From assembly GCA_934432595.1 (NCBI GenBank), contig CAKRYR010000002.1, positions 71,387-135,386 on the forward strand: DNA of 64,000 nucleotides, given 5' to 3'. The DNA is from an uncultured Lachnospiraceae bacterium (lineage in GTDB: Bacteria > Bacillota > Clostridia > Lachnospirales > Lachnospiraceae). Of the stretch, positions 12,807-29,353 are shown piece after piece. A program made the translations under genes and the position numbers. The notes beneath the pieces were generated by a model that had not been told where the DNA came from, did no database searches, and was given only the letters and a program-made list of their open reading frames with translations. Each line of letters opens with the position of its first letter. The stretch's first letter is position 1.

Positions 12807-13458
12807 AAAAACCTCCTAATCCTACGACAATTTCAGTTACTTGTAAATATGATAATTAAAATGGAAGAAAATGTCAATAGATTTTTGGAATCTATTATTA
12901 GCTATTCTAGTGAAGATGCTTGAATGGGGACGATTTAAATATTTTTAATAGTTCTATTAATATTGTCGGAGTTGTCAGATTTTGGTGAATATTTAGGAAG
13001 TGGGATAATTTTAGGTTTTGTGGCAATTGTCGATATATTATTAGGAAATACGACATTTTGAAGTTTTTATTAACTGGCGTGGTTAGATTTAATGTATAGT
13101 TAACAGTTTGTAACATTTATTGGAAATATTTGTTACTTGCTTGAGAATGTGTATTAACCATACTTATAAATGTTATGAAAACCCTTAATATATAAGGCTT
13201 TTTTGGAGGTCGAAGGAGGTTGAAAATTGTCAAAAAAGTGGTACACTTTTCTCTTTGCGAATAGTGAACTAATAGAAAAGTTGGAGTTTAGAGAGGTTTG
13301 CGCGAAATTGTTACTTGCTTGTTACTTACGAAAATGGGGTGATATTATCAAGGTATTTTTCATTATTGTTAGAAAAATAAAATAATTTATTGTATGTCTA
13401 AAATTATATTCATATAATATTATTAAGAATGAATTATAAAAGCAGGGAGATGATCTTA

Positions 13459-13599
13459 ATGACAATGACAAAGGTTGAAATTAATATACCAGAAAAATTG
13501 TACCATATTATAAAAGAACGCATAGATCTATTGAAAAAGAATAACATACGTATAAGTGAAAAACTATATCAAAAATTACAAAACTATGTTGGAATATAG
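13459..13599 (+). CDS. small hypothetical protein (46 aa)
   Basis: ATG preceded by AGGGAG. Translates to MTMTKVEINIPEKLYHIIKERIDLLKKNNIRISEKLYQKLQNYVGI. Followed by a T-run and the hairpin AAACGCA..TGCGTTT (about 13655-13677). Below the track's size cut-off. Confidence 0.3.
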   Translation: MTMTKVEINIPEKLYHIIKERIDLLKKNNIRISEKLYQKLQNYVGI

Positions 13600-13716
13600 A
13601 ATATATTTTGCAAATTGCGTTCACTTTATAGTGGATGATTTTTTTTTTTTATAAATAAACGCACGCTTGCGTTTATTATACATTTAGCGTGCGTTTACGA
13701 TATATTTAATATTTTT

Positions 13717-15057
13717 TTATAAAAATTGTGTCATATATACTGGTAAGCATATAATATCATTATCTTTTTTTAAATCTTTTGTATATATCAAATATCTCCA
13801 TAAAATTCTATCTGAAAACTTGTTTGTAAATGCATCCAATGAAGCGTGTGTGGTATAACCTGATGATTTGACTTCAAGTGGGCATATTTTATTTTTCCTA
13901 GCCAATATAAAATCTACTTCGTAATTATGTTTAGAAGTTAAGTTCATAAACGTATGATAAAATAATTCATTACCATTAGCAACCAATGTTTGAGCAATTA
14001 CATTTTCGTATAAATATCCGAGATTAGTCGATAGTTTATCATTTAACAATTTTTTATAAATAACATTTTCTGTAAAATCTCTATCTTTAAACATAAGGGT
14101 AACAAATAAACCTGTATCACAAATAAAAAGCTTGAATTTTTTTAAATCTTTGTTATTTGACATACCTATATTAGGATCATTGGCATGATACGAAACAAGG
14201 ACGGTCTTTGAATCATTAAGCTCTGCAATTAATTCAAGTATCTTCTCTGCACGATCTCCTTCTAAAATGCTTGAAACTTGATATCTTGAAGCATTTTTAT
14301 TTAGTTGGGCTGGTATGGCATCAAACAATAAAGAAATTTTTCCAGTTGGATCGATTTTTTTAAAGTCATCTTCATACAAGTTTAAAATATCTCGTTTAAT
14401 CTGATCAACCTTTTTAAAATTATTTGTTTCTATATATTCATTTACAGCTTGAGGCATACCTCCAATTAACATATATAAACGAAAATCTCTAAGTAATTTT
14501 CTATGTGTAACATCTCCTATTGATGTTTTGGAGTTATATACTTTTTTTAACAAAGGAACTGTAGTGGTATCACCGATTGCCCAAAGAAATTCTTCATAAT
14601 CCATCGGATACATATTTATTTTTCGTTCTTCACTTGGTATTAGAATATCCTTAACATTTTTTTTAATGGAAATCAATGAGCCTGTCTCAATATAATCATA
14701 TCTATAATCCTTAACTAAAGATTTAATAGCTTGTCTAGCTAAAGGACACAATTGTACTTCATCGAATATAATTAATGATTTTCTCTCATGAAGATCAACC
14801 TCATATTGCAGTTGTAGTTGTAAAAATAAATAGTTTAAATCAGAAACATCTTCAAATAATTCCTTTACAGCTTTTGAAGCTATAGAAAAATCAATTAGAA
14901 TATATGATTCATATTCATTCTTAGCGAATTCCTCTACTACAGTTGACTTCCCTATACGTCTAGCACCTTCTATTAATAATGCAGTTTTTCCATCAGACTC
15001 TTTTTTCCATTCTAATAACTTATCATATATTTTTCGTTTAAACATTTTATCCTCCAT
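13717..15057 (-). CDS. AAA-family ATPase with DUF4143-type C-terminal domain
   Basis: Walker A GARRIGKST and Walker B-like LIIFDEVQ. The architecture is that of AAA_14 plus DUF4143 proteins. It is a diverged paralogue of 29454-30653. Confidence 0.7.
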   Translation of the reverse strand: MEDKMFKRKIYDKLLEWKKESDGKTALLIEGARRIGKSTVVEEFAKNEYESYILIDFSIASKAVKELFEDVSDLNYLFLQLQLQYEVDLHERKSLIIFDEVQLCPLARQAIKSLVKDYRYDYIETGSLISIKKNVKDILIPSEERKINMYPMDYEEFLWAIGDTTTVPLLKKVYNSKTSIGDVTHRKLLRDFRLYMLIGGMPQAVNEYIETNNFKKVDQIKRDILNLYEDDFKKIDPTGKISLLFDAIPAQLNKNASRYQVSSILEGDRAEKILELIAELNDSKTVLVSYHANDPNIGMSNNKDLKKFKLFICDTGLFVTLMFKDRDFTENVIYKKLLNDKLSTNLGYLYENVIAQTLVANGNELFYHTFMNLTSKHNYEVDFILARKNKICPLEVKSSGYTTHASLDAFTNKFSDRILWRYLIYTKDLKKDNDIICLPVYMTQFL

Positions 15058-15099
15058 ATAACTTAATTATTTTAGAAGCGTATTTTTTATATTACTAAT

Positions 15100-15181
15100 A
15101 TATCACAAAATCGCACATTTTATTCATTAAATTTATACCAAAATCGCATTTTTTATTTTCACATTATATCACAAAATCGCA
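15100..15181. promoter_or_regulatory. three direct repeats (CAAAATCGCA core) upstream of the ATPase gene; putative operator
   Basis: ATATCACAAAATCGCA at 15100-15115 and 15166-15181. The core CAAAATCGCA is at 15139-15148. All lie in the 5' region of the minus-strand gene. Confidence 0.35.
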
Positions 15182-15328
15182 TTTTTTGAAAGATAGTAGT
15201 TTAAAAAATATAAACAATAATATTTACTTAGTAGAAATATATAATACATAAATAAATAAGAGCAAGCCCATCGGACTTGCTTTGTTTACAGTCTGATACT
15301 TTAGTATTAAACTAAAGCGACTAAATAA

Positions 15329-16159
15329 TTATTGAATATTATATTCTTTATATAGCTTTTCTTTATATTGTTTATCAGAAGCAACACGACCAATATCTTC
15401 AAATCTATGTTCTCTATAAAGCAAGTTCATCAAAGTAGCTAATTTTTCCTCTCCTTCCACTCTACCTTTTATTCTGCCTCGTCTTTCTCCTTCTCTTCTG
15501 CTCTCTAATAGGTTCAATTCATACTTCATATATTTCACCCTCCAATCAGCATTTCTTCTTTTTATTCTTACCGCTTCATCTAGTTTCTTTGTATATTCAT
15601 CTGTTATTGTTTCCTCGTTAATATATTTTATCAAACTTGCAAGCTTCGGATTTAGATTTTCATCATCTAATGGAGCAGTAGTATTTACAAATACTTTAGT
15701 AGTAGCATCATTTAATACTAATTCTTTATCTTCCGTACATATATTTTTAAATGTGTATTTGAGGAAATCTTTTTTAAATACGTCAAATGTACAGATAAAT
15801 ATCACTATAGTATTTTTTAATGCATCATAATCCATTCCTGCCTGTAATTGATTTAAATCAATTGCACTTTGATAAAATCTTGATCTTTTTGGTAAGTTAG
15901 TGCTTTTACCTGCTTGCATTTCAACGTTATATACTGTATTTTCACTATCTTCAGTATATATGTCTAATCTAACACCTTTACCATCATAACTATCTTTCTT
16001 TGTATCTTGACCAGTTACGTATACTAGTTTCTTAATCTTAATATCTAGTATTCGTTCTAATAATTCTTTGCATAATTCCTTATCTGACATAACACTAAAG
16101 AACATAAAATCATCTTTTAATGTTATTTGGTCAAAATCTTTTGTAACTTCGTATTCCAT
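15329..16159 (-). mobile_element. Rpn-family recombination-promoting nuclease / PD-(D/E)XK putative transposase, left copy
   Basis: The N-terminal LKDDFMFFSVMSDKELCKELLERIL and LDIYTEDSENTVYNVEMQ (D...E.Q nuclease core) are typical of the PDDEXK_2/Rpn family. Near-identical to 31847-32689 in inverted orientation. Confidence 0.75.
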
Positions 16160-16409
16160 ACCCTTATCTTCCTTTCATTATAGCATATTAAACAAATGTT
16201 ATACAATATATCCATTATATAAATGCTATTCTGTGCAATAAATTTTTTTAAAAAGTATGAAAAATTTCTCATTCTAAATAGCAACTCATAGATAGAAATG
16301 AAAAACCCTTCACTAATAATACGGATTTGACCCCATCAAATGTTCCCGTTTTATAGAAAGTTTATGGAATTTTATAGAAATTTTATTTTCTGACTAAAGA
16401 TATAGCAAT

Positions 16410-16436
16410 AAGAGCAAGCCCATCGGACTTGCTCTT
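16410..16436 (-). terminator. terminator hairpin after surface-protein gene A (member of a repeated hairpin family)
   Basis: AAGAGCAAG...CTTGCTCTT stem. Related copies lie at about 15259-15285, 29236-29262 and 31570-31597, and differ mainly in the loop. Confidence 0.6.
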
Positions 16437-16485
16437 ATCTATATTATGATTAAATCATATTCAATTATTATCTATCGAATATCAA

Positions 16486-19400
16486 TTATTTTACTACAAC
16501 AGCCTTAGCTGATGAGAATGCTCCATAGTAAGTGTTTGAACCTACAGTCTTGTATGCTCTAACTTTGAACTTATATGTTGCTCCCTTAGCCAAACCAGTC
16601 TTAGTAAAGCTTGTAGAAGTAGTAGTCTTAACTTTTACATACTTACCATTACCTTTAGCCATGTAGATTTGATATCCTGTAGCTCTTGCTACTTTAGTAA
16701 ACTTAACTGTTGCTTTCTTACTTCCTGCAGTCACTGAAGGAGTTGCTACCTTAGCTGGTGCAGTAGTAGTCTTCTTAGTTGCGTATACTTTTGAGTATCC
16801 AGCAGTCTTAGCATAAGCTTTAACAGCAAATGTATAAGTAGTAGCTGAAGCTAATCCAGTTACATTCATGCTAGTAGCTGTAGTATTCTTGAATACCTTG
16901 TAGCTCTTAGCACCTGGTGCTTTATAGTATACTCTGTATGAAGTTGCTCCAGTAGCCTTAGTCCAGTTTAACTTAACTGAGCTTGCAGTTCTTGAAGTTC
17001 CTAACATCTTAACTTTACCAGGTACAATAACAACTTTTGCTACGTTTGATTCAGCTTGGTTGTAGTTAGTAGTTGCAATTGAAGTAGCTTTTACATAGTA
17101 TGTTCCAACTTTAGTTGGTACAGCTATCTCAGTTGTGCAATCTGCATCTGCATAATAAACATATGCTACAGGTGCACCTGCTTTGTTAGTTGTCTTAGGT
17201 TGAACTGATCCACCTAGTACAACTGTTTTATCTTCAACTTTTAATTCATTATCAGCTCTATCAATTAGGAAAGTAGCTGTTAATTTACCTTTTGTTTCAG
17301 TAACTTTTTCGAATTTACCTATGAAGTTAATTGTAGCTCTTGCAATACCTACGTTAATATTTTCATCGTAAGTTACAGTGTAGTCTACATCTTTAACAAG
17401 TGTAAAGTCTGGATTTAGACCATTTAAGTGTTCAACACTTACAACACCTTCAAGTTCTTCACCTGTATAAACTAAGTCCTTAGTTGTTACTTTATAATTA
17501 TCAGTAGCTTCACCTACTGATGTAGTAGACATAGTAGTAACTGAGTATTTAACAACTTTTGAATCATATTTATTATTCTTATCTGTTATTGTACAGTTAT
17601 ATGTTGGAGTTGTACCATCATATGTTATTGTAAATGTTGGATCAGTTGATAATGTTGTAGCACTTGATCCTTTTGTCCATTTATAAGTTACTTCTTCACC
17701 TTCTGCAACATCTACTTTAGGAGCAAAAGTATACTCTCTATCTTTAATTCCCTTTACAGCAAATGTATCATTTGTAGTTGCTACTAATTCTTTTCCGTTA
17801 GGACCATATACAGTAAATGGAACAACTTTATTAACTTTAATAGTTACTGTTCTTGTAGCAACACCATCTGTTACTTCACATACGAAGTAGTTTGCTTCGT
17901 TAACTTTATTTCCTTGAGTAGGATCTTCCTTCTTAACTTCAGGAATATAGATGTGATCATCTGCTAAAGTTCCTATTTTTACTACATTATTATCAATTGT
18001 AGCATTAATTGTACTGAAAGTTGTAACATCCGTTGCTGGTGTTGGATTATCGTCATCTAAATTAGTATCAGCATTTTTAACAAACTTCCAAGTATATGAT
18101 AATGGTAAAGAAGAAGTAGCATTAACTTTTAACTCAAGATCTTTTACTTGTAATTTGCTTGTTACATCAGTTGCAGATGCAGTTAAATCTGATACATATA
18201 TTACGTTCAATGTATGAATTGCTGTATCAGTTCCATTTGAAACTGTCCATTCATATTTACCAAAATCAGAATATGAAGCAGTATTTACTTTGTATGATTT
18301 AACAGTTGCGTCTGTTTTATCTACTAATGGAGAACCACCGTTTAATGTTAACTGACTGCTGTTAGTTGTGCCTTCAACTGTAGGTGCAGTCATCTCGAAT
18401 GAACCACCAACTTTAACAACCTTAACCTCTGAAGTTTTGATTGTTGAAGTATCATCTTTACCTAAAGTAAATGTTTCTGTAAATAATGCATCTGAACTAG
18501 ATCCTGCAGCAGCTGTATCAATTAAATCACATAATGCAGCATACTTAGTATTTGCTGAGGCATCAGCAACAGCGTCTAATTTTGTCTTAAATAATTCATT
18601 ATATTTTTCAACAGAAACGGCATAACATTTAACTGTAGTAATATTGTTTGATGTTTTGTCATTAATTGTAATGTTCTTATTAGTACCATCATAGCTCATT
18701 ACATCGTTTTCTGTAAGTAAAGTAGATATCTTTTTACCTACAACTTGCCATACATATCTGTAATCTGCATTTGAAGGAATACTAGTTGTTAATGATAACT
18801 TGTCATTTAATAATGTATCATCAGTATCTAATGCAACTACATCTGTATAAATATTAGTCATTTTATCCTTAACAGTAGATGCATTTGTTCCATCTAGTGT
18901 TAATGTAACATTTGCACTAACATCTCTAATTGTATCGTTTACTGTACATTTATATGTACCAAAATCAGCGTTAGTCAAATTAGTAAGTTCTATTCTATTA
19001 CTTGTGTATTGAGGTAATTTAGTACCGCCTCTTGTCCATGAATATGTAAGGTCTTTCTTTGTACTCTTAACAGTTACTTCAACCACAGCATTTCCACCAA
19101 CAATACCTTTAACTGTTGCTGGAGTTGCAGTTACAGTAGTATCTGATGCTTCGTATAAGTTTACTAAAGCATAATCAGTTGAATCTGTTGTTAAACCATT
19201 AGAATCCAATTTAACTGCTAAGTATAAACCTAAGTTAGCTGGAGTAACTTCTTCAAAGTATAACTTTGTATCGTCATTAGCTTTTTCAAAAGCATTTTCA
19301 GCAACTAATGTCCAATATTTTACTTTAGCAACCTCAGTCTTAGTAGTTGTTCCGTCTAAATAAGGAACTTCTACTGTAGTTTCAGAAGGTACTAATTTAT

Positions 19401-19914
19401 ACCATTGAACACCATGTGCAGCATCTGTTAATCCTGAAGATACTTCAACTTTTTTATTACCTAAAGTACTTTCTTTTGTAGCATCTGTTGGAGCTACACT
19501 TCTTTCTTTTCCGTCAAAAGCGATTCCTTCATCTACGGACTTTACTGGATCTCCTTTTTGTTGTGAAAAGCCAGTTGTTTTTGCAATGCTATATGCAGTT
19601 GCATATGTTGCACCAGTAACCTTAGCTGTATCATTAATTTGAGCTCCATTTACAAGATCAGTAGCATTAATTCCTAATTTGCTCTTTAAATCAGCTTCTG
19701 TAAAAGTAATGTTTCCAGCATTTACTGTATTAATCGTATTAACAATAACTTTTCCATCATTTGCAGTAGCGTCTGTACCTGCTGGCAATGTAACAGTACC
19801 TGAGGCAGCTTTTACTTCCTTAACAAATACAGGACTTACAGTTAAAGTACTGAAAGCAACAGCGAATGCCATTGAGTAAGCGATTAACTTTTTCGCAAAA
19901 TAATTCTTTCTCAT
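16486..19914 (-). CDS. giant secreted surface protein A (Ig-like repeats plus two C-terminal fibronectin-III-like domains)
   Basis: Signal peptide MRKNYFAKKLIAYSMAFAVAFSTLTVSPVFVKEVKA. Recurrent Ig-like Y-x-C motifs (GTYKCTVND, NYFVCEVTDG, PTYNCTITD). Fn3-like blocks (SVKLNWTKATGATSYRVYYK, ATVKFTKVARATGYQIYMAK). No LPXTG, SLH or choline-binding motif was seen. Confidence 0.8.
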   Translation of the reverse strand: MRKNYFAKKLIAYSMAFAVAFSTLTVSPVFVKEVKAASGTVTLPAGTDATANDGKVIVNTINTVNAGNITFTEADLKSKLGINATDLVNGAQINDTAKVTGATYATAYSIAKTTGFSQQKGDPVKSVDEGIAFDGKERSVAPTDATKESTLGNKKVEVSSGLTDAAHGVQWYKLVPSETTVEVPYLDGTTTKTEVAKVKYWTLVAENAFEKANDDTKLYFEEVTPANLGLYLAVKLDSNGLTTDSTDYALVNLYEASDTTVTATPATVKGIVGGNAVVEVTVKSTKKDLTYSWTRGGTKLPQYTSNRIELTNLTNADFGTYKCTVNDTIRDVSANVTLTLDGTNASTVKDKMTNIYTDVVALDTDDTLLNDKLSLTTSIPSNADYRYVWQVVGKKISTLLTENDVMSYDGTNKNITINDKTSNNITTVKCYAVSVEKYNELFKTKLDAVADASANTKYAALCDLIDTAAAGSSSDALFTETFTLGKDDTSTIKTSEVKVVKVGGSFEMTAPTVEGTTNSSQLTLNGGSPLVDKTDATVKSYKVNTASYSDFGKYEWTVSNGTDTAIHTLNVIYVSDLTASATDVTSKLQVKDLELKVNATSSLPLSYTWKFVKNADTNLDDDNPTPATDVTTFSTINATIDNNVVKIGTLADDHIYIPEVKKEDPTQGNKVNEANYFVCEVTDGVATRTVTIKVNKVVPFTVYGPNGKELVATTNDTFAVKGIKDREYTFAPKVDVAEGEEVTYKWTKGSSATTLSTDPTFTITYDGTTPTYNCTITDKNNKYDSKVVKYSVTTMSTTSVGEATDNYKVTTKDLVYTGEELEGVVSVEHLNGLNPDFTLVKDVDYTVTYDENINVGIARATINFIGKFEKVTETKGKLTATFLIDRADNELKVEDKTVVLGGSVQPKTTNKAGAPVAYVYYADADCTTEIAVPTKVGTYYVKATSIATTNYNQAESNVAKVVIVPGKVKMLGTSRTASSVKLNWTKATGATSYRVYYKAPGAKSYKVFKNTTATSMNVTGLASATTYTFAVKAYAKTAGYSKVYATKKTTTAPAKVATPSVTAGSKKATVKFTKVARATGYQIYMAKGNGKYVKVKTTTSTSFTKTGLAKGATYKFKVRAYKTVGSNTYYGAFSSAKAVVVK

Positions 19915-20075
19915 GTCTTTCCTCCTATTTTTCCTATCAATATGATTATTTTGTTTTGAGAGATTGTGTTACAACGATACTAATTTCTAATCATCTATGG
20001 ATTTACTTTGGAACGCATCCTAGCTTTAGTTAAATTGATTAATTATCTTAGCACTCGTTAACATTTATCTCTTTG
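19800..20075. repeat. left copy of the inverted leader repeat (signal-peptide codons plus 5' UTR of gene A)
   Basis: The reverse complement matches 25442-25825. The distal 43-bp block at 20033-20075 equals 25442-25484. The proximal block 19915-19999 matches 25628-25712. The first roughly 110 nt of the coding sequence are about 88% identical. Confidence 0.85.
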
Positions 20076-20381
20076 CAAATAGTGAATAGGGAAATATATG
20101 CAAATATATACAAAAAATAACTTTGAAAAGTGCCTATTTTAAAGGGTTTTTAGAATAAAAATGAATAAATAATACAATTATTGGAGATAATAGATACTTA
20201 CATGTTACTTTATATAGGTAAGTTCATATTATCGACAGTGTAGGATGAACTTCCAGCAAATGGTAAGAAGGCAAACTAGGGATTAATAGGGTTTGTCAGT
20301 TCCGATTTCATTTATAGTAAATGAGTCGCTAGTGACTTTTTACTACATATTGATAATATTATAGAAAGAAGGATTGATGAA

Positions 20382-21455
20382 ATGCGATTACCAAATGGTT
20401 ATGGAGGAGTAATTAAATTATCGGGGAAGAGGAGAAGACCATATGCAGCAAGGATTACTGTAGGGTGGCATGAACATGAGATAACAGGAAAGAGGGTGCA
20501 AGAGTATCAGATTATAGGATATGCTAAGACAAGGCAAGAAGCACTTGAGGTATTGGCGAACTATAATAAGAATCCTATAAGTATGACTGTTACAAAGTTA
20601 ACTTTCAAGGATGTGTATACAAGGTGGTCTGAGGAAAAATATCCAACCATTTCTAAGTCAAATGTTACAGGTTACAAGGCTGTCTATAAGTTATGTGATA
20701 AGCTAAATGATAAATCATTTAAAGATTTAAAATTGGATGATTTACAACGTACGATAGATACTTGTGAGAAGAATTATCCAACATTACGAAAGTTAAAGGT
20801 TTTATTTAATCAGCTATATGATTATGCAATGAAGCATGAGATATGCTATAAAGATTATTCACAGTATGTAAATATCATTAAATATAAGGAACGTAACCCT
20901 AATAAAAGTAGTAGAGATAAGTTTAGTCATAGTGAAATTGATAGGTTATGGCTAAAGAAATCTAATCCGTATTATCAAGTAATACTTATGTTAATATACA
21001 ATGGTGTGCGTATATCGGAGTTACTTAATCTGAAGAAGGAAAATATTAATCTTAAGGAACAGTATTTTGAAGTAATTAAGAGTAAGACTGAAAATGGTAT
21101 ACGTCAGGTGCCTATTGCAGATGCTGTTCTGCCATTTTATAAGGAATGGTATAATTCAAATCCAAAGTTTCCTTACTTATTATATACGACAGAAGGTAGA
21201 AGATTTGAATATAGGAATTATTATAAGCATTATTTTACGCCACTTATGGAGAAACTTCATATTGAAAAGACACCACATTGTTGTAGACATACTTGTGTAT
21301 CTATGTTGGTAGAGGCGGATGTAAGTCAAACCTTGATAAAGACTATTGTAGGACATACTGGAGCAATGTCTCTTACGGAAAAAGTATATACTCATCTAGA
21401 CATTGATGAATTGGTCGATGCAGTAAATAAAATGTATGTGCCAGAGAGTATATAA
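20382..21455 (+). CDS. tyrosine site-specific recombinase (phage-integrase family) with an AP2-like arm-type DNA-binding N-terminus
   Basis: The N-terminal LPNGYGGVIKLSGKRRRPYAARITVGW is typical of integrases with an arm-binding domain. The catalytic set is readable: R in NGVRISELLNL, HxxR in HCCRHTCVS, H in VGHTG, and Y in EKVYTHL. Confidence 0.85.
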   Translation: MRLPNGYGGVIKLSGKRRRPYAARITVGWHEHEITGKRVQEYQIIGYAKTRQEALEVLANYNKNPISMTVTKLTFKDVYTRWSEEKYPTISKSNVTGYKAVYKLCDKLNDKSFKDLKLDDLQRTIDTCEKNYPTLRKLKVLFNQLYDYAMKHEICYKDYSQYVNIIKYKERNPNKSSRDKFSHSEIDRLWLKKSNPYYQVILMLIYNGVRISELLNLKKENINLKEQYFEVIKSKTENGIRQVPIADAVLPFYKEWYNSNPKFPYLLYTTEGRRFEYRNYYKHYFTPLMEKLHIEKTPHCCRHTCVSMLVEADVSQTLIKTIVGHTGAMSLTEKVYTHLDIDELVDAVNKMYVPESI

Positions 21456-21930
21456 TAGGAAGAAATAATTTAGAGTAGATTGGGTTTATATTAATTATTA
21501 TAATCATAAATTCAATCTACTCTTTGTTTATTTAATAACAAATTGTGTTGCATTTCTTATTAAATAAAAAACGTTCTACTGGGGATGCACAGCTTTTGGA
21601 TGGGATATGTTACACTCGACAATATAATATATAATCTGCACAAAAATTTTCGTTAATAAGTAAAATATATATACAACTTTAATAATTACATTTTGTATAT
21701 TGTAAGTTACTTTTTTGATACTTGTGTGTTACTTATTTAAAGGATTACGAGAAACTTAACAAATTATAAATAAATTAACAAAATATTAAAAAAATATTAA
21801 AAATATATTGACAAAGTATATGAAAATGTGGTTAAATAAATATAGGGATATTTTGTATGGAATAATTTCATACATTTTGGTTAATAATTATAGGTGTTAT
21901 TTAAGTGTCATTGAGAGGGGTTATGCTATC

Positions 21931-23154
21931 ATGAGAATAATGAGATCTGATGATGAGCAAATAGTATCAGCACAAGGCCGATACCAATATGGACAAAATA
22001 ATATGTATTATAATCAGCAGAGTAATGGTAGTTGCGCTTACGATGCTGATGTTGATTTCTCTTATAGTGGTAGACAATTCATGAATGAGCTAGCTAAGGA
22101 TAGAAAGTTTGGTACAAGTAATATCAGACCAGTAGAGAGAGATAGAGACAGTTTCTCAGAGAGGATATATCAAGATGCTATCGAAGAGGCATCAAGAGTC
22201 AAGACTATGGGATATTTTAATGATCTATCTAAGATAGAAGGAACTAATCCTCTTCATAATACTATACCTGGAAGATTGAGAGAGAAGGCTAGTATACATA
22301 ATCAGACTAATGAAATTCAAAATAAGACTAATGTTCAGAAATCCAACTTAAATAGTATTAATTATAACGATATTAAAGTTAATGATAATATAAATAATAG
22401 TAGTTACAATAATTTGGTAAAGAATGATTTTAGCAAAGGTGCTGATGATAAAAAAATAGTATATTCAGAGAAGATGATGGCACCACAAGAAAATAACGTA
22501 ATGTCATTTGGAAATAAGGAAACGAATATATCTAATATGGAGAATATGCCATTTGGAAATAAGCGAACAATTCCTCCAAATGGAATATCAAATATGGGTG
22601 CATCATCATTTCAAAATAATCAAATGGCTAATTCAGGAATAAGTTCATCTATAGCAGCTAATATAAATAACCCTAGTAAGTATGATGAGCTGATGGACAA
22701 AGTTAGAGATAATATTCAACATGAGATAGAGACACAGTTAGTGGAAGAAGGTAGAGAAAAGCTTAGAGAAAAAGTTAAGGTACAAGTTAACAATATACCT
22801 TATAAAGCTACAAAAGAATATACTGGTGGCTCATTTGGAAGACAGGTGGCAGAACAACAGTTACAAGTTAGAGATTATAAGGTAGATAAAAGTACTAAAG
22901 GAGATGGAGAATCAGGAGAGGATAAGAAAATGGGAATCCTATCGTGGATAATCCTAGTTCCATTTATGATAGTTCCAGCAGTTGGACTTATAGTATCGGG
23001 AGTTATTTCATTTTTGGTACCAAAAGACAAACCACTTAAGGTATTCGCTAGATTTTGTTTAACAGTACATTTGGTAATGTCGTTAGTAGCAGTTTATATG
23101 TATTTTAAAGGATATTTGGATATAAGTTTGATTAAGAAGTATATTAATTTCTAG
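21931..23154 (+). CDS. hypothetical protein: N/Q-rich low-complexity region plus C-terminal transmembrane helices
   Basis: I prefer the start at 21931 (GAGAGGGG 10 nt upstream). C-terminal hydrophobic segments are ILSWIILVPFMIVPAVGLIVSGVISFLV and FCLTVHLVMSLVAVYMYF. Confidence 0.5.
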   Translation: MRIMRSDDEQIVSAQGRYQYGQNNMYYNQQSNGSCAYDADVDFSYSGRQFMNELAKDRKFGTSNIRPVERDRDSFSERIYQDAIEEASRVKTMGYFNDLSKIEGTNPLHNTIPGRLREKASIHNQTNEIQNKTNVQKSNLNSINYNDIKVNDNINNSSYNNLVKNDFSKGADDKKIVYSEKMMAPQENNVMSFGNKETNISNMENMPFGNKRTIPPNGISNMGASSFQNNQMANSGISSSIAANINNPSKYDELMDKVRDNIQHEIETQLVEEGREKLREKVKVQVNNIPYKATKEYTGGSFGRQVAEQQLQVRDYKVDKSTKGDGESGEDKKMGILSWIILVPFMIVPAVGLIVSGVISFLVPKDKPLKVFARFCLTVHLVMSLVAVYMYFKGYLDISLIKKYINF

Positions 23155-23167
23155 AGGGGGTTATAAT

Positions 23168-23611
23168 ATGCAAGCAGAGGATATGAGCATTTATTGGAAT
23201 CAACGTAAGGGACAATATGAAACAAACAATTATAATTATTATAAACAAGATAATACATTTACAAGAACAGCTGATCAAAGATCAAGATATAGTGAAACAA
23301 CATCTTATCAAGAGGAAGAGAAAGAGGCAATAGATGAAAATGCAGTAAAAATGGGTTCATGGCTAGGAACATTTTTCCTATTATTAATACCTGTTGTAAA
23401 CATCGTTGCACTTATTAAAATGGCAATTAGCTGTAAATCAGCTAGTAAGAAGTCATTTGCTAGAGCAGCATTACTTATGGGACTTATTTGCATTACTATA
23501 GGATTAGTATTTGTTGCACTTACTTGCGATAAGATAGATTATACTGTATATATGGATAAAGCAATGGTTATTGTAAATAAAATCGCTGGTGCTGTAAAAA
23601 GAAGCATATAG
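23168..23611 (+). CDS. small membrane protein (cytoplasmic N-terminus, 2 transmembrane helices)
   Basis: GAGGGGG ribosome-binding site. Hydrophobic segments are WLGTFFLLLIPVVNIVALI and LLMGLICITIGLVFVALT. Confidence 0.5.
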   Translation: MQAEDMSIYWNQRKGQYETNNYNYYKQDNTFTRTADQRSRYSETTSYQEEEKEAIDENAVKMGSWLGTFFLLLIPVVNIVALIKMAISCKSASKKSFARAALLMGLICITIGLVFVALTCDKIDYTVYMDKAMVIVNKIAGAVKRSI

Positions 23612-23727
23612 TTTTAGTTGATTTTTGTAAGATAATAGTTAATAATAGTGGTTGTCACGTGTGTGGCAACCATTCTTTTGTGTTTTAGGAAATGCAGGAG
23701 ATATTTATATAAGAGAGGATGATATAT

Positions 23728-24468
23728 ATGCAAGAGAAGATAGTATATAAACCATATAAGAAAAGTTTTGATTATTCATATACACTAGGAGCATTTCCAA
23801 CATTAGAATTAATAAAAGCTAAGAAAGAGCTAGTTAGATGTATATACGTTCATTCTAAGTATGATGGAAGTGTAGATATAGAGAAGATATGTAAGGATAA
23901 CAATATAGAATTACGTTATAGTGATAAAGGAATAAATAGAATAAGTACTAAGGAAAACTGTATGATTGCAGGTATATTTGATAAATTTCAATGCGAACTG
24001 GTTAACAAGAGACCCCATGTTTTATTAGTTAATCCAAGTGATATGGGAAATATGGGTACTATAATAAGAAGTATGTTGGGATTTGGTATAAAAGATTTGG
24101 CTATAATATCTCCATGTGCAGATATATTTAACCCTAAGACTATACGAGCATCTATGGGAGCTGTATTCAAGATAAGACACAAGATATATTCATCATATGA
24201 AGAATACGTAGGAGAGCATGGTAACCACGAAATGTTCCCATTTATGCTAGATGGAGATAAAACATTGGACATTAACGATTGTCCTAAGTCAGAACTATAC
24301 ACACTTATATATGGAAATGAAGCAACAGGACTATCACCTGAATATAAGAAGGTTGGACAAAGTATATTCATTCCTCAGACTAAGGATGTTGACTCTCTTA
24401 ATTTGCCAATATCTGTAGGAATAGGGTGCTTTGTATTTACAAGCAATAACCCTATAAATAAGAAATAA
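23728..24468 (+). CDS. TrmH/SpoU-family RNA 2'-O-methyltransferase
   Basis: SPOUT motifs are readable: LVNPSDMGNMGTIIRSMLGFG, LIYGNEATGLS and SLNLPISVGIGCF. I prefer the start at 23728 (AGAGAGGA 8 nt upstream). Confidence 0.75.
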   Translation: MQEKIVYKPYKKSFDYSYTLGAFPTLELIKAKKELVRCIYVHSKYDGSVDIEKICKDNNIELRYSDKGINRISTKENCMIAGIFDKFQCELVNKRPHVLLVNPSDMGNMGTIIRSMLGFGIKDLAIISPCADIFNPKTIRASMGAVFKIRHKIYSSYEEYVGEHGNHEMFPFMLDGDKTLDINDCPKSELYTLIYGNEATGLSPEYKKVGQSIFIPQTKDVDSLNLPISVGIGCFVFTSNNPINKK

Positions 24469-24715
24469 ATAGAATGGATATTCATAAGTAAGAATTGAAA
24501 TTTTATAAATCAATTGGTGGAAAATATAAATAAAAAGTAAAAATAAATAAGCAAATTTGAATAATAAAACCAAAGGATAAAGCTTGCATTAAGACTTCGG
24601 TAACTCTATTGAATAGCACCCTTAGATGTATTATTATATAGACATAGCAAAGATATTTAATCATTTGGGGAAACGATTAATTGCTTTGGGGATTATAATA
24701 AAAGGGGTTATTATT

Positions 24716-24913
24716 ATGAGTTTAGTATTGAAATGTGCAGCAGTTGGAGGATTTCTGTACTATTTGGAAATAAGAAGACCTGAAGTCTATCTTAAGAGAA
24801 GTAAAAGAGCAAGGGTATGGATTGAACTTACAAAATGGGCAATTATTATTGGATTCTTTGCATTGGTATTTGCAGCAGAACAGTTCTTCATTGATAATTT
24901 GATGACGTTCTAG
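24716..24913 (+). CDS. small membrane protein (65 aa)
   Basis: ATG at 24716 preceded by AAAGGGG. Two hydrophobic segments. Confidence 0.4.
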   Translation: MSLVLKCAAVGGFLYYLEIRRPEVYLKRSKRARVWIELTKWAIIIGFFALVFAAEQFFIDNLMTF

Positions 24914-24980
24914 TTCATATAATTAAATAAGGTTACAAGTTTTTATTCGAACATAAATCATTTATACACATAATAGGGAA

Positions 24981-25005
24981 GTCATTTCGCGCGGAATGGC
25001 TTTTC
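24981..25005 (+). terminator. intrinsic terminator ending the plus-strand gene block
   Basis: GTCATTTC-gcgc-GGAATGGC stem (with G-U pairs) followed by TTTT. Confidence 0.5.
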
Positions 25006-25409
25006 TGTTATTTTTGGGGAAAATATCTATACCTTTAAATATAGAAGCGGTGAACGAATTAGCAAGTGTGGAAGGTGACATAGTAAGTGACATTAAACAT
25101 GGTAATTATTGGCAATTAGTTATCTTAATCTTAAATAAATTCTGGTATTCACTAGTATGATACTTCCTTAAATATAATAGGTTTATCAAATCTAAATTAG
25201 TCGTAGCTAACATTTCTTAGTACATATTATCACCAAAATTTCAAAAATAGGGGCTAAATATATAAAAAAAAATGACGATACAACTGTTGCTACGTAAAAA
25301 ATGAGCGATTATTGGGAAAAAATACCTAGTACCAATAGGGGAAAAAGTCCGAAAACTGGTACTTAGAGAAGAAATTTGTAATTTTTCAAAAAAAATTGAC
25401 AAAATATGG

Positions 25410-25438
25410 TTGCAAAATTTTTTTAGTCGTAGTATACT
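25410..25438 (+). promoter_or_regulatory. candidate sigma-A promoter reading into surface-protein gene B
   Basis: TTGCAA (25410-25415), exactly 17 nt of spacer, then TATACT (25433-25438). The -10 element ends 3 nt before the inverted repeat starts at 25442. Confidence 0.5.
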
Positions 25439-25441
25439 TGT

Positions 25442-25825
25442 CAAAGAGATAAATGTTAACGAGTGCTAAGATAATTAATCAATTGAATTAGAGCTAGGAA
25501 GTTAGTTGATTATTAGTTGGTTAATTATTTACCAATCTATTTAATTATTCATTAATAATTAAATACTTAACTAATTAATCTGCTAACACGTATCACATAC
25601 CCACTAGGATACGTTCAAAGCAAATACATAGATGATTAGAAATTAGTATCGTTGTAACACAATCTCTCAAAACAAAATAATCATATTGATAGGAAAAAAT
25701 AGGAGGAAAGACATGAGAAAGAATTATTTTGCGAAAAAATTCGTAGCTTATTCAATGGCATTTGCTGTTGCTTTCAGTACTTTGACTGTAAGTCCTGTGT
25801 TTATTAAGGAAGCTAAGGCTGCTAC
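25442..25825. repeat. right copy of the inverted leader repeat (5' UTR plus signal-peptide codons of gene B), carrying a roughly 126-bp AT-rich insertion
   Basis: See 19800-20075. The insertion at about 25485-25610 sits between two CTAGGA copies and is absent from the gene A leader. Confidence 0.85.
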
Positions 25826-28800
25826 AGTACCTACAGCTACACCAATGACTTCAATTACTGGTGATCAATTTATTGTTGGTAATGTAACTACTAATGTAGC
25901 AGCAAGTACTTCTAATATTACATTAGAAGATGTTGCAAAAAATATTAATGGTGCAATTGCTACAGGAAATAGTCAAAATACCTTTTATCTAACTTTTACA
26001 AAAGGTGAAGATACAGAGGAACAAGTAAATAATGGAATAAAAACATTATATAAGTATGAAACTCTAGATCTTGCTGCAAATATGATAGGTACAACAGATC
26101 CTGCAGTTGCAGCACCAGTATTGGTTGATTTTATAGCTGATAATCCAGGCGTAATTGATGCATCAGCTGTAAAATCTGCTGGAGTAAAATGGTTTAAGTT
26201 AGAACCAATTCATGGAACATTTAGTCATTCTACAGGAATAACAGCTACACCAACAGAAACTATTAGTTATGATGCTTATTATCTAAACGCTATTAGTGAA
26301 TCAGACTTTGGTGATACTAGCGATGATGGAAAACTTACTTTCCAAAAAGGTAAAGTTAGTAGTAATGATTGTGGTTTGTATTTGGCTGTGGATGCTACAA
26401 ATCCAACCAAAGGTGCTGTATTTAATGTAATCCAAGATACTAAATTAAAAGCAGCTCCTGAAAGAACTGAATTTATAGTTAAATCAGGATCTGATGCAAA
26501 CTTAATAGTTCACGCTTCAAATAATAGTGGTAATATTTCATATTCTTGGAGAAAAGGAACTAAAACTCTTTCAAGTACATCAGATGTATGTAAAATAGAA
26601 AAAGTAGATGGAACAAAAACAGGAAATTATACTTGCGTTGTTTCAGATGGTTCTGGGGAAGTTACTTTGAGAAATATCAAATTGTCTGTTTCAGAAAATG
26701 CATTAGGTGCAAAACCAGTTTATAAAACAGTTGTAAAAGGATTAGTTGCTACAACTGATGGAGCTACTAACCCATCAATAAGTGACAAATTAATAGGTGG
26801 AACAGCTGAATTAACTTCATCTGTACCGGCAAATGAAAACTATAGATATGTATGGTTAGATAAAAACAAGTCTGTAGAAAGTGTAACAGCAGCTAATATT
26901 TTAAACTATGATGCAAAAAATAATAATATAGTAATTAATGATAAGAAAGATAAATATGATGCAGCTACAAAAAGTCATGAAATCTCTTGCTATACATTAA
27001 CAGCAGATGATTATGAAGCATTAAAAGCTGATGTAAGATCAACTACTGATGGTGATGAAACAATAGGTGGTTTATTGGTTGAATTAAGTAAAGCAAAAAA
27101 TGATGTTGAAAAGAAAGAAATTAATGATTACATCAGAAAAATTGAAAATGAAAATGCTGCTGCAGTTAAAACAGAGAGTTTATATCAAGAAGATTATATT
27201 TTCGTTCGTGAAGATGATAAATTAACTAATTCAGTTAACTTAGTAAAAGCTGTCGGAGATAATGTAATATGTGAAGCTCCAAGTAAAGATTTATATACAA
27301 AATGTACTGCAAGTGGGCATTCTGCTGATGAAACAATAACAGCTAATCCAGAAGTATCATTTGTTCGTACTGAGTTACAAGGAAATGATTTTGGAAATCA
27401 TCCAATTAGTACAACATATAAATGTTCAAATGCAACTTCTGATACAAAAACAGCTACTACATATTACAATATAATTTACAAATCAGATCTTACTGCAACT
27501 GCTGAAAATACAAATATAGTTGCTAAGATCGGTTCTAAAGAGGTTGAATTAAAAGTAAATGCATCAAGTGCTTGTGGATTAGATTATACATGGACTAAAT
27601 ATACAAAAAATTCTGATGCTAAAAAAGTAACTCCTAAGGTTATTGCAACAAGCAAAACTTCAACACATAAAATAAGTACAGTAGCAGATACAGATATTTA
27701 TGTACCAGAAAAATTAGATGAATTAGGTAATCTAGTTGCACATGATTATAACTATTATGAATGTGAAGTTTCAAATGGTATTGAAAAGAAAGTTATTAAA
27801 TTTACATTAAGTCAAGAAGGCGGATATAAAGTATACGATCAAAAACCTCTTGATGGAACACAAGTAAATGTAGCCCGTAATGATAATGGTGTCACAAGTT
27901 ATACTGTTACTGGTTGGACAGCAATACCTGGAAAGAATATCGTATTAAATCCATATGTTGTAGCAGATAAAGGAGTTAACATTACATATAAATGGTATGA
28001 TATTACAAATAGTAAAGAAATTCTTTCTACAACAGATACATTAGATATTCCTTATACTAAACCAGTAACTTATGTATGTGTAATATCTGATGGTGAAAAT
28101 GAATTTAAATTGAAATATGATTTACAAAATGCTACAGTAACTACTGATGAGGTATATGTATATCTTCGTGATGATATTGAAGACCAAGTATATACTGGAA
28201 AAGAAATAACTCCTGAGTTAAATGTTGGATTTGCATTAAAATCAGGTGGCGGTGGTTTTACAAACTATAGCGTTGTGTCAAAATTAGTTGCTGGAACAGA
28301 TTATTTAGTTGAATATGTAGAAAATGTAAATGTTGGTGAAGCAAGAGTAAAAGTTACTCCAACTGGATTATATAAAGGAGTAACTGAGACATTTAAATTC
28401 TACATCAACAGAGCAGATAATACATTAGAAATCGCAGATAGGACTGTAGTATTAGGTGGTTCAGTTCAACCTAAGACAGTTAAGAATACTGCAAAAGCTA
28501 CATTATCATATGCATACTTTACTGATAAAGAGTGCACTAACGAAATTGAAGTACCAAGCAAAGTTGGAACTTACTATGTAAAAGCTACTTCAGCTGCTAC
28601 ATTAAATTACAAAGAAGCAACTTCAAACGTAGCAACAGTTAAGGTTGTACCTGGTAAAGTTAAGATGTTAGGAACTTCAAGAACTGCAAGCTCAGTTAAA
28701 TTAAACTGGAATAAGACTACTGGAGCAACTTCATACAGAGTATACTACAAAGCACCAGGTGCTAAGAGCTACAAAGTATTCAAGAATACTACAGCTACTA

Positions 28801-29186
28801 GAATGAATGTAACTGGATTAGCTTCAGCTACTACTTATACATTCGCTGTTAAAGCTTATGCTAAGACTGCTGGATACTCAAAAGTATACGCAACTAAGAA
28901 GACTACTACTGCACCAGCTAAGGTAGCAACTCCTTCAGTGACTGCAGGAAGTAAGAAAGCAACAGTTAAGTTTACTAAAGTAGCAAGAGCTACAGGATAT
29001 CAAATCTACATGGCTAAAGGTAATGGTAAGTATGTAAAAGTTAAGACTACTACTTCTACAAGCTTTACTAAGACTGGTTTGGCTAAGGGAGCAACATATA
29101 AGTTCAAAGTTAGAGCATACAAGACTGTAGGTTCAAACACTTACTATGGAGCATTCTCATCAGCTAAGGCTGTTGTAGTAAAATAA
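25713..29186 (+). CDS. giant secreted surface protein B (paralogue of A)
   Basis: Start at 25713 (AGGAGG upstream) gives MRKNYFAKKFVAYSMAFAVAFSTLTVSPVFIKEAKA. Ig-like Y-x-C motifs are GNYTCVVSDG, NYYECEVSNG and VTYVCVISDG. The last roughly 180 aa are almost identical to protein A; the central roughly 900 aa are strongly diverged. Confidence 0.8.
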   Translation: MRKNYFAKKFVAYSMAFAVAFSTLTVSPVFIKEAKAATVPTATPMTSITGDQFIVGNVTTNVAASTSNITLEDVAKNINGAIATGNSQNTFYLTFTKGEDTEEQVNNGIKTLYKYETLDLAANMIGTTDPAVAAPVLVDFIADNPGVIDASAVKSAGVKWFKLEPIHGTFSHSTGITATPTETISYDAYYLNAISESDFGDTSDDGKLTFQKGKVSSNDCGLYLAVDATNPTKGAVFNVIQDTKLKAAPERTEFIVKSGSDANLIVHASNNSGNISYSWRKGTKTLSSTSDVCKIEKVDGTKTGNYTCVVSDGSGEVTLRNIKLSVSENALGAKPVYKTVVKGLVATTDGATNPSISDKLIGGTAELTSSVPANENYRYVWLDKNKSVESVTAANILNYDAKNNNIVINDKKDKYDAATKSHEISCYTLTADDYEALKADVRSTTDGDETIGGLLVELSKAKNDVEKKEINDYIRKIENENAAAVKTESLYQEDYIFVREDDKLTNSVNLVKAVGDNVICEAPSKDLYTKCTASGHSADETITANPEVSFVRTELQGNDFGNHPISTTYKCSNATSDTKTATTYYNIIYKSDLTATAENTNIVAKIGSKEVELKVNASSACGLDYTWTKYTKNSDAKKVTPKVIATSKTSTHKISTVADTDIYVPEKLDELGNLVAHDYNYYECEVSNGIEKKVIKFTLSQEGGYKVYDQKPLDGTQVNVARNDNGVTSYTVTGWTAIPGKNIVLNPYVVADKGVNITYKWYDITNSKEILSTTDTLDIPYTKPVTYVCVISDGENEFKLKYDLQNATVTTDEVYVYLRDDIEDQVYTGKEITPELNVGFALKSGGGGFTNYSVVSKLVAGTDYLVEYVENVNVGEARVKVTPTGLYKGVTETFKFYINRADNTLEIADRTVVLGGSVQPKTVKNTAKATLSYAYFTDKECTNEIEVPSKVGTYYVKATSAATLNYKEATSNVATVKVVPGKVKMLGTSRTASSVKLNWNKTTGATSYRVYYKAPGAKSYKVFKNTTATRMNVTGLASATTYTFAVKAYAKTAGYSKVYATKKTTTAPAKVATPSVTAGSKKATVKFTKVARATGYQIYMAKGNGKYVKVKTTTSTSFTKTGLAKGATYKFKVRAYKTVGSNTYYGAFSSAKAVVVK

Positions 29187-29353
29187 TTGATATTCGATAG
29201 ATAATAATTGAATATGATTTAATCATAATATAGATAAGAGCAAGTCCATTGGGCTTGCTCTTGTTTTGATAAAAATTATTATAGAGTATTATTAGAAGTC
29301 AAAACGATCAAATTTGTTCGTTTAAAGCTTTTTCATAACCAAAATATTTTTTA

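Follow-up and report, generated by a model that had tools for sequence, protein, structure and literature searches.

A variable surface-protein locus built on a domesticated integrase in an uncultured gut Lachnospiraceae, with a candidate promoter-swap inversion

Introduction

Why does a tyrosine integrase gene lie between two divergent surface-protein genes whose leaders are inverted copies of each other, and could it decide which of the two is expressed? The question is raised by a stretch of 64,000 nucleotides (nt), here called the window, from an uncultured Lachnospiraceae bacterium (GenBank assembly GCA_934432595.1, contig CAKRYR010000002.1, positions 71,387 to 135,386), in which two genes that we call A and B face away from a 5.4-kb central segment, S, that holds the integrase gene int at one end and a strongly conserved promoter region of sigma-A type, P, at the other. 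A first-pass annotation, made from the sequence alone, had proposed that inversion of S between the leader repeats would move a single promoter from gene B to gene A. Here we describe a variable surface-protein locus organised around a domesticated integrase, a member of the family found in mobilizable elements at rpsI, and show that recombination at the cores typical of this family has occurred in nature. Among the single mechanisms that we weigh, inversion of S driven by the integrase is the likeliest, with a probability of about 0.4.

Pathogens (Mycoplasma, Campylobacter and Neisseria) and Bacteroides offer well-described examples of programmed surface-protein variation; to our knowledge, such variation is hardly known in the abundant gut Firmicutes.

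Results

An attachment core of the integrase family at the inner edge of both leaders

The argument turns on the following parts of the locus (aa, amino acids; att, attachment):

16486-19914, minus strand: gene A, encoding a secreted Ig-like/Fn3 surface protein of 1142 aa
25713-29186, plus strand: gene B, encoding a paralogous secreted Ig-like/Fn3 surface protein of 1157 aa
19915-20075, minus strand: leader A, 161 nt, left arm of the inverted repeat (with the signal-peptide codons at 19800-19914)
25442-25712, plus strand: leader B, 271 nt, right arm of the inverted repeat, including an insert specific to B
20382-21455, plus strand: int, tyrosine integrase of 357 aa
25165-25441, plus strand: P, conserved non-coding promoter region
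13269-20065, minus strand: left cassette (an ATPase gene, a PDDEXK_2 gene, gene A and its leader), with the direct cores site1 and site2 as borders
13248-13268, plus strand: site1, att-core-like TTTCTCTTTGCGAATAGTGAA, left border of the left cassette, direct to site2
20066-20086, plus strand: site2, att-core-like TATCTCTTTGCAAATAGTGAA, containing the inner edge of leader A (at 20075, following TCTCTTTG)
25442-25452, minus strand: site3, arm-less att core (TTATCTCTTTG on the minus strand, then A), inverted relative to site1 and site2
13309-13327, plus strand: arm array A1, two repeats 11 nt apart (TGTTACTTGCTTGTTACTT), 41 nt from site1
20192-20210, plus strand: arm array A2 (AGATACTTACATGTTACTT), 117 nt from the core of site2
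21705-21734, plus strand: arm array A3, three tandem repeats (matches at 21705 and 21716), 250 nt past the int stop

For comparison we used 63 loci from human-gut metagenomes, retrieved by exact-protein look-ups with the integrase and four variants of it, the SpoU gene, a 65-aa open reading frame (ORF) and genes A and B. They represent three lineages of S, with one common plan: a left gene on the minus strand with its leader, int, cargo genes, the promoter region, a right leader and a right gene.

Lineage 1: the window's own, without extra genes
Lineage 2: ~80% identical to the window, with extra HTH_3, Peptidase_M78 (ImmA/IrrE-like) and 270-aa genes (11751-13783 in L031)
Lineage 3: ~92% identical to the window, with an extra 464-aa SLFN_AlbA_2/HTH gene (6235-7629 in L046)

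The integrase and the leaders meet in a short core. In related elements at rpsI the att core at the junctions is TATCTCTTTGAR, and direct copies of it separate tandem elements. In the window the att core of this integrase family, TATCTCTTTG, is located at the inner edge of both leader repeats, where it forms the first bases of both leaders in inverted orientation; judging from the family, this core in the shared leader is the probable target of the integrase. The pattern T[T/A]TCTCTTTG is present three times, at 13248(+), 20066(+) and 25451(-), the copies reading TTTCTCTTTGC, TATCTCTTTGC and TATCTCTTTGA, respectively, and the last of them, site3, is placed exactly between the promoter and leader B. 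The two strands of the window (128 kb) contain TCTCTTTG only 6 times, while TTATCTCTTTG is confined to site2 and site3. The homology between leaders A and B ends exactly after the core in all three lineages. Site1 is conserved at 30/31 positions between lineages 1 and 2, in surroundings that are ~78% identical, and in lineage 2 it shares 18/20 positions with the att core region at rpsI of the mobilizable element in L043. A fourth TATCTCTTTGC, at 44385-44395 inside a 397-aa gene, has no arm repeats near it and is probably a chance match.

Arm-type repeats accompany these cores. The motif WGWTACTT-N3-WGWTACTT is matched 4 times in the window (0.09 expected), each time on the plus strand. The 19-mer of A1 recurs without change in the arm array that separates int from the att core in L041-43 and is conserved 19/19 in lineage 2, where site1 and A1 stand out as conserved islands; A2 is conserved in all three lineages; and A3, which is 29/32 identical to L044, is homologous to the int-to-core arm of related mobilizable elements. 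Neither the cores nor the arm arrays, three of each, have changed place or orientation among the three lineages, at an S divergence of 8-20%. We looked for an attR-type core ~100 nt past A3, which was found in no lineage, and for a second core beyond the right cassette, which was not found either.

A constrained integrase of the rpsI-element family

The integrase scores 74.3 bits against PF00589 (Pfam Phage_integrase; cut-off 27.1), and its alignment to the XerC-like structure 4a8e gives vRiSEL, HccRHT, GH and vYThl, corresponding to R, HxxR, GH and Y. With models of FimB/FimE-type invertases it reaches 23 bits, the cut-off being 221. Outside its own 90% cluster the nearest relatives are 62-68% identical and belong to a very large family, and the three whose context was looked up (P0033, P0007 and P0009) are carried by small mobilizable elements that adjoin the 3' end of rpsI and comprise a relaxase gene, the gene for an AAA_25 protein, an HTH gene and int. 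The rpsI gene is a target of such mobilizable elements (PMC5704250). In the window neither the stretches between the sites nor their surroundings hold a Mob, Rep or AAA_25 gene; since relaxase and replication genes are missing, the integrase is not part of a mobile element, and the central segment is a derivative of an rpsI-type mobilizable element that is not mobile itself.

The gene is well kept. At a synonymous divergence (dS) of ~1.4, int has a ratio of non-synonymous to synonymous change (omega) of 0.04; the ratio is 0.06 for the SpoU gene and 0.23-0.34 for the membrane-protein genes of S. These estimates indicate strong purifying selection on int, tighter than on its neighbours, and int is not a decaying relic. 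Given that family-specific att cores coincide with the repeat edges, that the arms are conserved and that int is under constraint, the enzyme is likely still to be active at these sites, and the earlier proposal of a recombinase working at the repeat boundary now stands on much firmer ground than when it was made.

Two observations concern the integrase itself. Between the window and lineage 3 (L046) the dS of int is 0.05 and that of the other S genes 0.15-0.44; S is a mosaic in this respect, which suggests that its int end recently recombined between lineages. Another member of the family, P0004, 67% identical, is an orphan in a Lachnospiraceae metagenome-assembled genome (MAG; L023-L026), where it lies between the gene for a DinG-type helicase and that for a 933-aa Fn3/GH25 surface protein; domestication of an integrase beside surface-protein genes may recur.

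Surface-protein diversity and recombination at the cores in nature

Over their full length the proteins encoded by A and B show 43% identity, which is nearly complete in the signal peptide and the final ~260 aa and falls to ~25-30% in the middle regions (an estimate from the alignment). Their family amounts to 13 clusters among 5.8 billion proteins and is thus tiny and restricted to the clade of the window. Relative to gene B, the 11 clusters beyond its near-identical allele have signal peptides 68-93% identical and middle regions 29-38% identical; the family is hypervariable. The left gene is undamaged wherever it is complete, and its alleles vary between samples, which argues against a dead copy; in lineage 3 it is A-like in four contigs and another allele in others. 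The far-left end of lineage 2 matches window positions 13029-13353, which puts the left cassette at the same chromosomal place there.

Variation extends to the presence of the cassette. In six samples (L001/L013, L003, L004, L012, L014 and L015) the left flank is joined to S exactly at the core; these single-cassette contigs lack 13269-20060, i.e. the left cassette, which is absent from about half of the lineage-1 samples. The deletions end exactly at the 19-nt cores and not within the longer homologies. Being site1 × site2 deletion variants, they show that recombination at the cores has occurred in nature. Three of the single-cassette contigs (L013, L014 and L015; Logan contigs with k=31) run from the flank through S and stop exactly 30 nt into the leader block, at 25471, which implies that in those samples the block also has a different sequence upstream of it, be it at another leader copy elsewhere, in a co-resident strain or in a flipped sub-population.

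Excision of this kind could be the basis of an integron-like platform, in which cassettes leave as circles by site1 × site2 and re-enter at any of the three cores, site3 included, so that strains trade and re-order alleles. The left cassette has the attributes of such a unit: it is flanked by direct cores, has its own arm array, is present in about half of the lineage-1 samples, and its gene begins right at the core and diverges from int as integron cassettes do from intI. The A allele, moreover, is found on the left in the window and on the right in L003. The right cassette, however, has no second core at its far end, and L003 retains a B-type leader, which fits homologous replacement better than insertion of a cassette. 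Nor is the enzyme an integron integrase (25 bits with the integron-integrase model, the cut-off being 265), and no circular junction was seen. We regard this platform as very improbable, the least so favoured of the mechanisms considered here.

The leaders, the promoter region and the case for inversion

The sequence statements from which the first-pass annotation started, namely the divergence of A and B, the inverted leader repeats, the position of the promoter and the integrase ORF, all hold on re-check. The 43-nt block at 20033-20075 is the exact reverse complement of 25442-25484 and has no further copy in the window, chance expectation being 0. A repeat finder delimits three inverted repeats:

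20018-20075 and 25442-25499: 58 nt, 95%
19928-20010 and 25616-25698: 83 nt, 98%
19800-19932 and 25695-25827: 133 nt, 89%, spanning the ribosome-binding site and signal-peptide codons

Leader B has ~116 nt (25500-25615) that are absent from leader A. The first 42 nt of the leader are identical in 15/16 distinct leaders, and the few changes in this almost invariant 5' block sit in loops or at helix ends. In the predicted folds both leaders are closed by one and the same helix, in which the 5' block, starting with the core, is paired with the proximal block (AGAGAU/AUCUCU, UGUUAACGA/UCGU..UAACA and UGCUAA/UUAGUA in both), with folding z values of -3.7 for leader B and -1.5 for leader A. In this model the long-range helix may be an mRNA-stabilising 5' stem, and such a stem is sensible only if transcription begins at the core, which favours the promoter upstream of it. 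A riboswitch or known leader RNA was considered and rejected, Rfam having no family in either leader or in S at gathering and E-value thresholds. A leader 23-mer had no match in the GTDB species genomes, the JGI metagenomes or the IMG/VR viral contigs, the integrase protein none in the GTDB species genomes and the distant family member P0312 none in the JGI metagenomes; these scans being empty, the clade is absent from the collections concerned.

An upstream promoter is what the B side offers. The elements TTGCAA (25410-25415) and TATACT (25433-25438), 17 nt apart, end 3 nt short of the B-side repeat. The final ~100 nt before site3, which include this proposed promoter, are 100% identical in the three lineages; over the ~277 nt upstream of site3 lineages 1 and 2 are 92% identical, and the 30-nt flank before site3 is identical in 22/23 contigs. 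The A-side flank at site2 is not conserved in lineage 2 and, read towards A, contains no promoter-like match of at least 9/12 in a simple consensus scan, in keeping with the earlier remark that no comparable -35/-10 pair could be found on that side. These observations make the promoter end of S appear functional; in the inversion model, P would be the sole functional promoter and gene A would be silent in the orientation seen.

The conservation of P is not limited to the promoter. Within 25165-25441, the ~250 nt that precede the promoter show 92-100% conservation among the three lineages, far above that of the neighbouring genes, and include the inverted repeat CTAGTACCA (25326) ... TGGTACTTAG (25359). 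A small protein encoded there, such as an excisionase, was considered and rejected, as no frame has coding-type substitutions.

Orientation, competing promoters and the wider duplication

Against these arguments for an inversion of S stand four groups of findings. (i) Every junction that could be typed has the same orientation. Assemblies report the majority state only, so that rare or strongly biased flips could escape, but at the integrase end 0/25 typable junctions are flipped, all 25 carrying the left-type leader, and at the promoter end 0/11, all 11 carrying the right-type leader. No flip appears anywhere among the 63 loci of the three lineages; the same gene adjoins int in 8/8 lineage-2 contigs; and the left chromosomal flank is always on the int side (the window, L020, L031 and the 6 single-cassette contigs). 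The two orientations that the first-pass annotation would have led one to expect among related assemblies are therefore not seen, and the variation that is seen needs just homologous recombination and site1 × site2 excision. (ii) The proximal leader shared by both genes contains TTGTAA-18-AATAAT (25652-25681 and 19974-19945), 31 nt before the start codons, which at 9/12 in the simple consensus scan equals TTGCAA-17-TATACT, so that each gene may have its own promoter. Promoter-like matches in this AT-rich region are at background level (125 found, 115 expected from shuffling), and the claim that S carries the only good promoter was not confirmed. (iii) Site3 is without arm repeats, site2 has arms on one side only and A3 is without a core; no pair of sites is a canonical attP × attB or attL × attR. 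(iv) The leader repeats belong to a larger inverted duplication that runs from the leader through the PDDEXK_2 gene, and would be present without any switch. The first-pass annotation had described the leader repeats correctly and missed the wider ones, which are inverted repeats of 762 nt (94%) at the 3' ends of A and B and of 416 nt (97%) in the PDDEXK_2 genes beyond them (repeat finder):

28504-29265, plus strand: conserved 3' end of gene B with its terminator, inverted repeat of 16407-17168 (94%)
15329-16159, minus strand: PDDEXK_2 gene of the left cassette
31847-32689, plus strand: PDDEXK_2 gene 3' of the right cassette, inverted copy of 15329-16159

These findings come together if A and B are a fixed inverted pair, each with its own promoter in the proximal leader and B with an extra one upstream, if the integrase moves the left cassette only and S never inverts, and if an inverted segmental duplication, spanning leader, gene and PDDEXK_2 gene, has the repeats as its ends, with gene conversion maintaining their similarity. 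The absence of flips from all 36 junctions, the extension of the duplication to the 3' ends and the PDDEXK_2 genes, and the promoter-like match in both proximal leaders are what such a pair would give; so are the polymorphism of the left cassette exactly at the direct cores, the arm arrays adjoining site1 and site2 and not site3, and the tandem elements split by the same core among the relatives at rpsI (L029 and L044). What the fixed pair leaves unexplained is the perfect 11-nt core that stands inverted exactly between the promoter and leader B in all lineages, the invariance of the ~100 nt upstream of the site3 core, and a 5' block that, in both leaders, pairs with the proximal block only if transcription starts upstream. 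We hold the fixed pair doubtful, if the most serious rival of the promoter-swap inversion.

Homologous exchange between the cassettes

Part of the variation at the locus needs only homologous exchange. L003 has a full B-type leader, then the body of A (98.9% identical) and then the B-side downstream region; it is the product of two homologous crossovers, one within the proximal leader and one within the conserved 3' block, and this 3' block of gene B supplies homology for such allele replacement. Descent of L003 from a flipped state was considered and rejected, since it keeps a complete B-type leader with its insert, which makes homologous replacement the simpler origin. In L034, L036 and L037 the left leaders have right-type bases at block positions 44-58, a tract that shows short gene conversion between the repeats.

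These events could be the whole of the matter, with RecA-type exchange through the conserved 5' and 3' ends, as in the sap locus of Campylobacter fetus, giving rise to allele replacement, gene conversion and, now and then, inversion, and with an integrase that is a functionless leftover of an old mobile element. Besides the double crossover in L003 and the B-type conversion tract, the left-gene alleles differ among samples with the same S, and RecA could work on repeats of this length (58, 83, 133 and 762 nt). A relic would decay, however, whereas int has an omega of 0.04 over a dS of ~1.4 and the cores and arms are conserved islands; and the deletions would not be expected to end exactly at 19-nt cores rather than in the longer homologies. 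Homologous exchange as the sole mechanism is, in our judgement, distinctly unlikely.

Surroundings and cargo

The window is chromosomal, with the L10 leader and rpoB downstream. RpoB is 88-90% identical to that of Lachnospiraceae MAGs and 82-84% to that of Anaerosporobacter and Anaerocolumna, an identity pattern that places the window in an uncultured Lachnospiraceae. On one side the locus is flanked by PEPCK and ABC-transporter genes, on the other by a MACPF gene; rpsI is not among these chromosomal neighbours. The cargo of S, and one gene of the left cassette, are as follows:

21808-24913, plus strand: cargo of S overall, four ORFs after int, on the same strand
21808/21931-23154, plus strand: membrane protein 1
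23168-23611, plus strand: membrane protein 2
23719/23728-24468, plus strand: SpoU/TrmH methylase
24626/24716-24913, plus strand: small membrane ORF
13717-15057: AAA_14/DUF4143 ATPase gene of the left cassette

No function emerged from NCBIfam or Pfam for the two membrane proteins of S. The extra genes of lineages 2 and 3 are typical of regulation or defence modules of mobile elements.

Several features of the cassettes are recorded here. The PDDEXK_2 genes (Rpn/YhgA-like, 'recombination-promoting nuclease') are part of the duplicated unit and might aid cassette recombination. A perfect 151-nt direct repeat of the 3' end and terminator of gene B, at 29098-29248 and 31431-31581, encloses a 2.2-kb insert with an AAA_14/DUF4143 ATPase gene (29454-30653) and a PhdYeFM antitoxin gene (30896-31150, minus strand); L012 is without this insert, and its PDDEXK_2 gene directly follows the surface gene. 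Upstream of the ATPase gene of the left cassette three copies of the motif ATATCACAAAATCGCA..., at 33-nt spacing (15067-15187), resemble an operator array. Just inside the same cassette, by site1 and its arm repeats, a 56-aa ORF (13429-13599) has a weak VapB-antitoxin-like match and is a possible antitoxin or directionality factor; in lineage 2 this ORF is not conserved.

Discussion

The mechanism that we rank first can be put as follows. The integrase would recombine site2 with the inverted, arm-less site3, and the exchange would flip S and hand promoter P to gene A. As the outer halves of site2 and site3 are identical, substrate and product would be equivalent and the reaction reversible. 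The transcript from P would begin at the first bases of the shared leader, whose 5' block would pair with the proximal block as a 5' stem; the same integrase would also excise the left cassette through site1 × site2; and the population would be strongly biased towards the orientation in which B is on. An extended form of this proposal sees in the integration module (integrase, att cores and arm sites) a programmed rearrangement system for the hypervariable surface-protein family and gives the three sites a double use, both for the flip of S, with its sole promoter and either/or expression, and for excision and re-insertion of the 6.8-kb cassette as a circle, alleles being swapped between silent and expression sites and between strains; this combination we regard as unlikely, if less so than homologous exchange on its own.

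A working switch would give an uncultured Lachnospiraceae of the human gut a system of antigenic or phase variation and would be a clear case of a mobile-element integrase, with arm-type and core sites, recruited for a host function. Even if S never inverts, the locus shows how att cores, conserved gene ends and homologous exchange together lead co-circulating strains to differ in whether they have a large surface protein and in which allele of it they carry.

How does the locus compare with systems already described? With fimS and FimB/FimE of E. coli, and with cwpV and flg under RecV in C. difficile, it shares a tyrosine recombinase and inverted repeats at a gene for a surface structure. Those systems are on/off switches of 0.15-0.3 kb that act on one operon, whereas here 5.4-8 kb are involved and the repeats are the leaders of two alternative genes. 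In the case of cwpV, a population can be strongly biased to one orientation. As in integrons and in the R64 shufflon (Rci), the recombinase gene adjoins its site, the cassette genes read away from it and there are several sites. In contrast to integrons, there is no IntI-specific domain and there are no attC-like elements; in contrast to the shufflon, there are no multiple short inverted sites within one coding region; and the cassettes here differ from both in being 6.8 kb long, with a leader of their own.

The origin of the integrase is reflected in its likeness to elements of the IMESag-rpsI type: an integrase 62-68% identical, the att core TATCTCTTTGAR, arm-type repeats, and direct cores between tandem elements. 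Unlike those elements, lineage 1 lacks modules for a relaxase, for replication or for a repressor, the locus lies away from rpsI, and S has conserved genes of cellular type and one fixed chromosomal place in three lineages.

The first-pass annotation had thought a large invertible segment between two alternative genes an unusual architecture, and here it had missed the precedents of C. fetus sap and of the Mycoplasma vpma, vsp and vsa loci. Work credited to Dworkin and Blaser (1996/1997) and Tu et al. (2003) is said to describe, for C. fetus sap, an invertible segment of ~6 kb that carries the sole sapA promoter and the unrelated genes sapCDEF, lies between opposed S-layer gene homologues with conserved 5' regions, and inverts mainly in a RecA-dependent manner. 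A large invertible promoter segment is thus not unprecedented, and in architecture, segment size and either/or logic sap is the closest to the present locus. The differences are that sap recombines through long conserved 5' coding regions, its segment encoding no dedicated recombinase, and that here an integrase is present, with att-like cores at the repeat edges.

The vpma locus of Mycoplasma agalactiae, vsp of M. bovis and vsa of M. pulmonis (with the recombinases Xer1, Mbr and HvsR) are families of surface-protein genes with a conserved 5' untranslated region and signal peptide and divergent mature parts, served by one promoter and an adjoining tyrosine recombinase whose sites lie in the 5' untranslated region, so that inversion sets a silent gene behind the promoter (PMC2268961). 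The present locus resembles them in its conserved leader and signal peptide, divergent middle regions, adjoining tyrosine recombinase and inverted core in the shared leader. It differs from them in that only two cassettes are present in the window, in its Lachnospiraceae host, in the inverted variant not having been seen, in its integrase, which is of lambda type, with arm-type sites, and comes from the rpsI-element family and is not Xer-like, and in the place of the recombinase inside the putative invertible segment together with four to seven other genes. Taken together, these likenesses and differences define what is new in the locus: (i) a lambda-type integrase with arm and core sites, taken from an rpsI-targeting mobilizable element; (ii) an extra direct site that renders one cassette excisable; and (iii) a host among the gut Lachnospiraceae.

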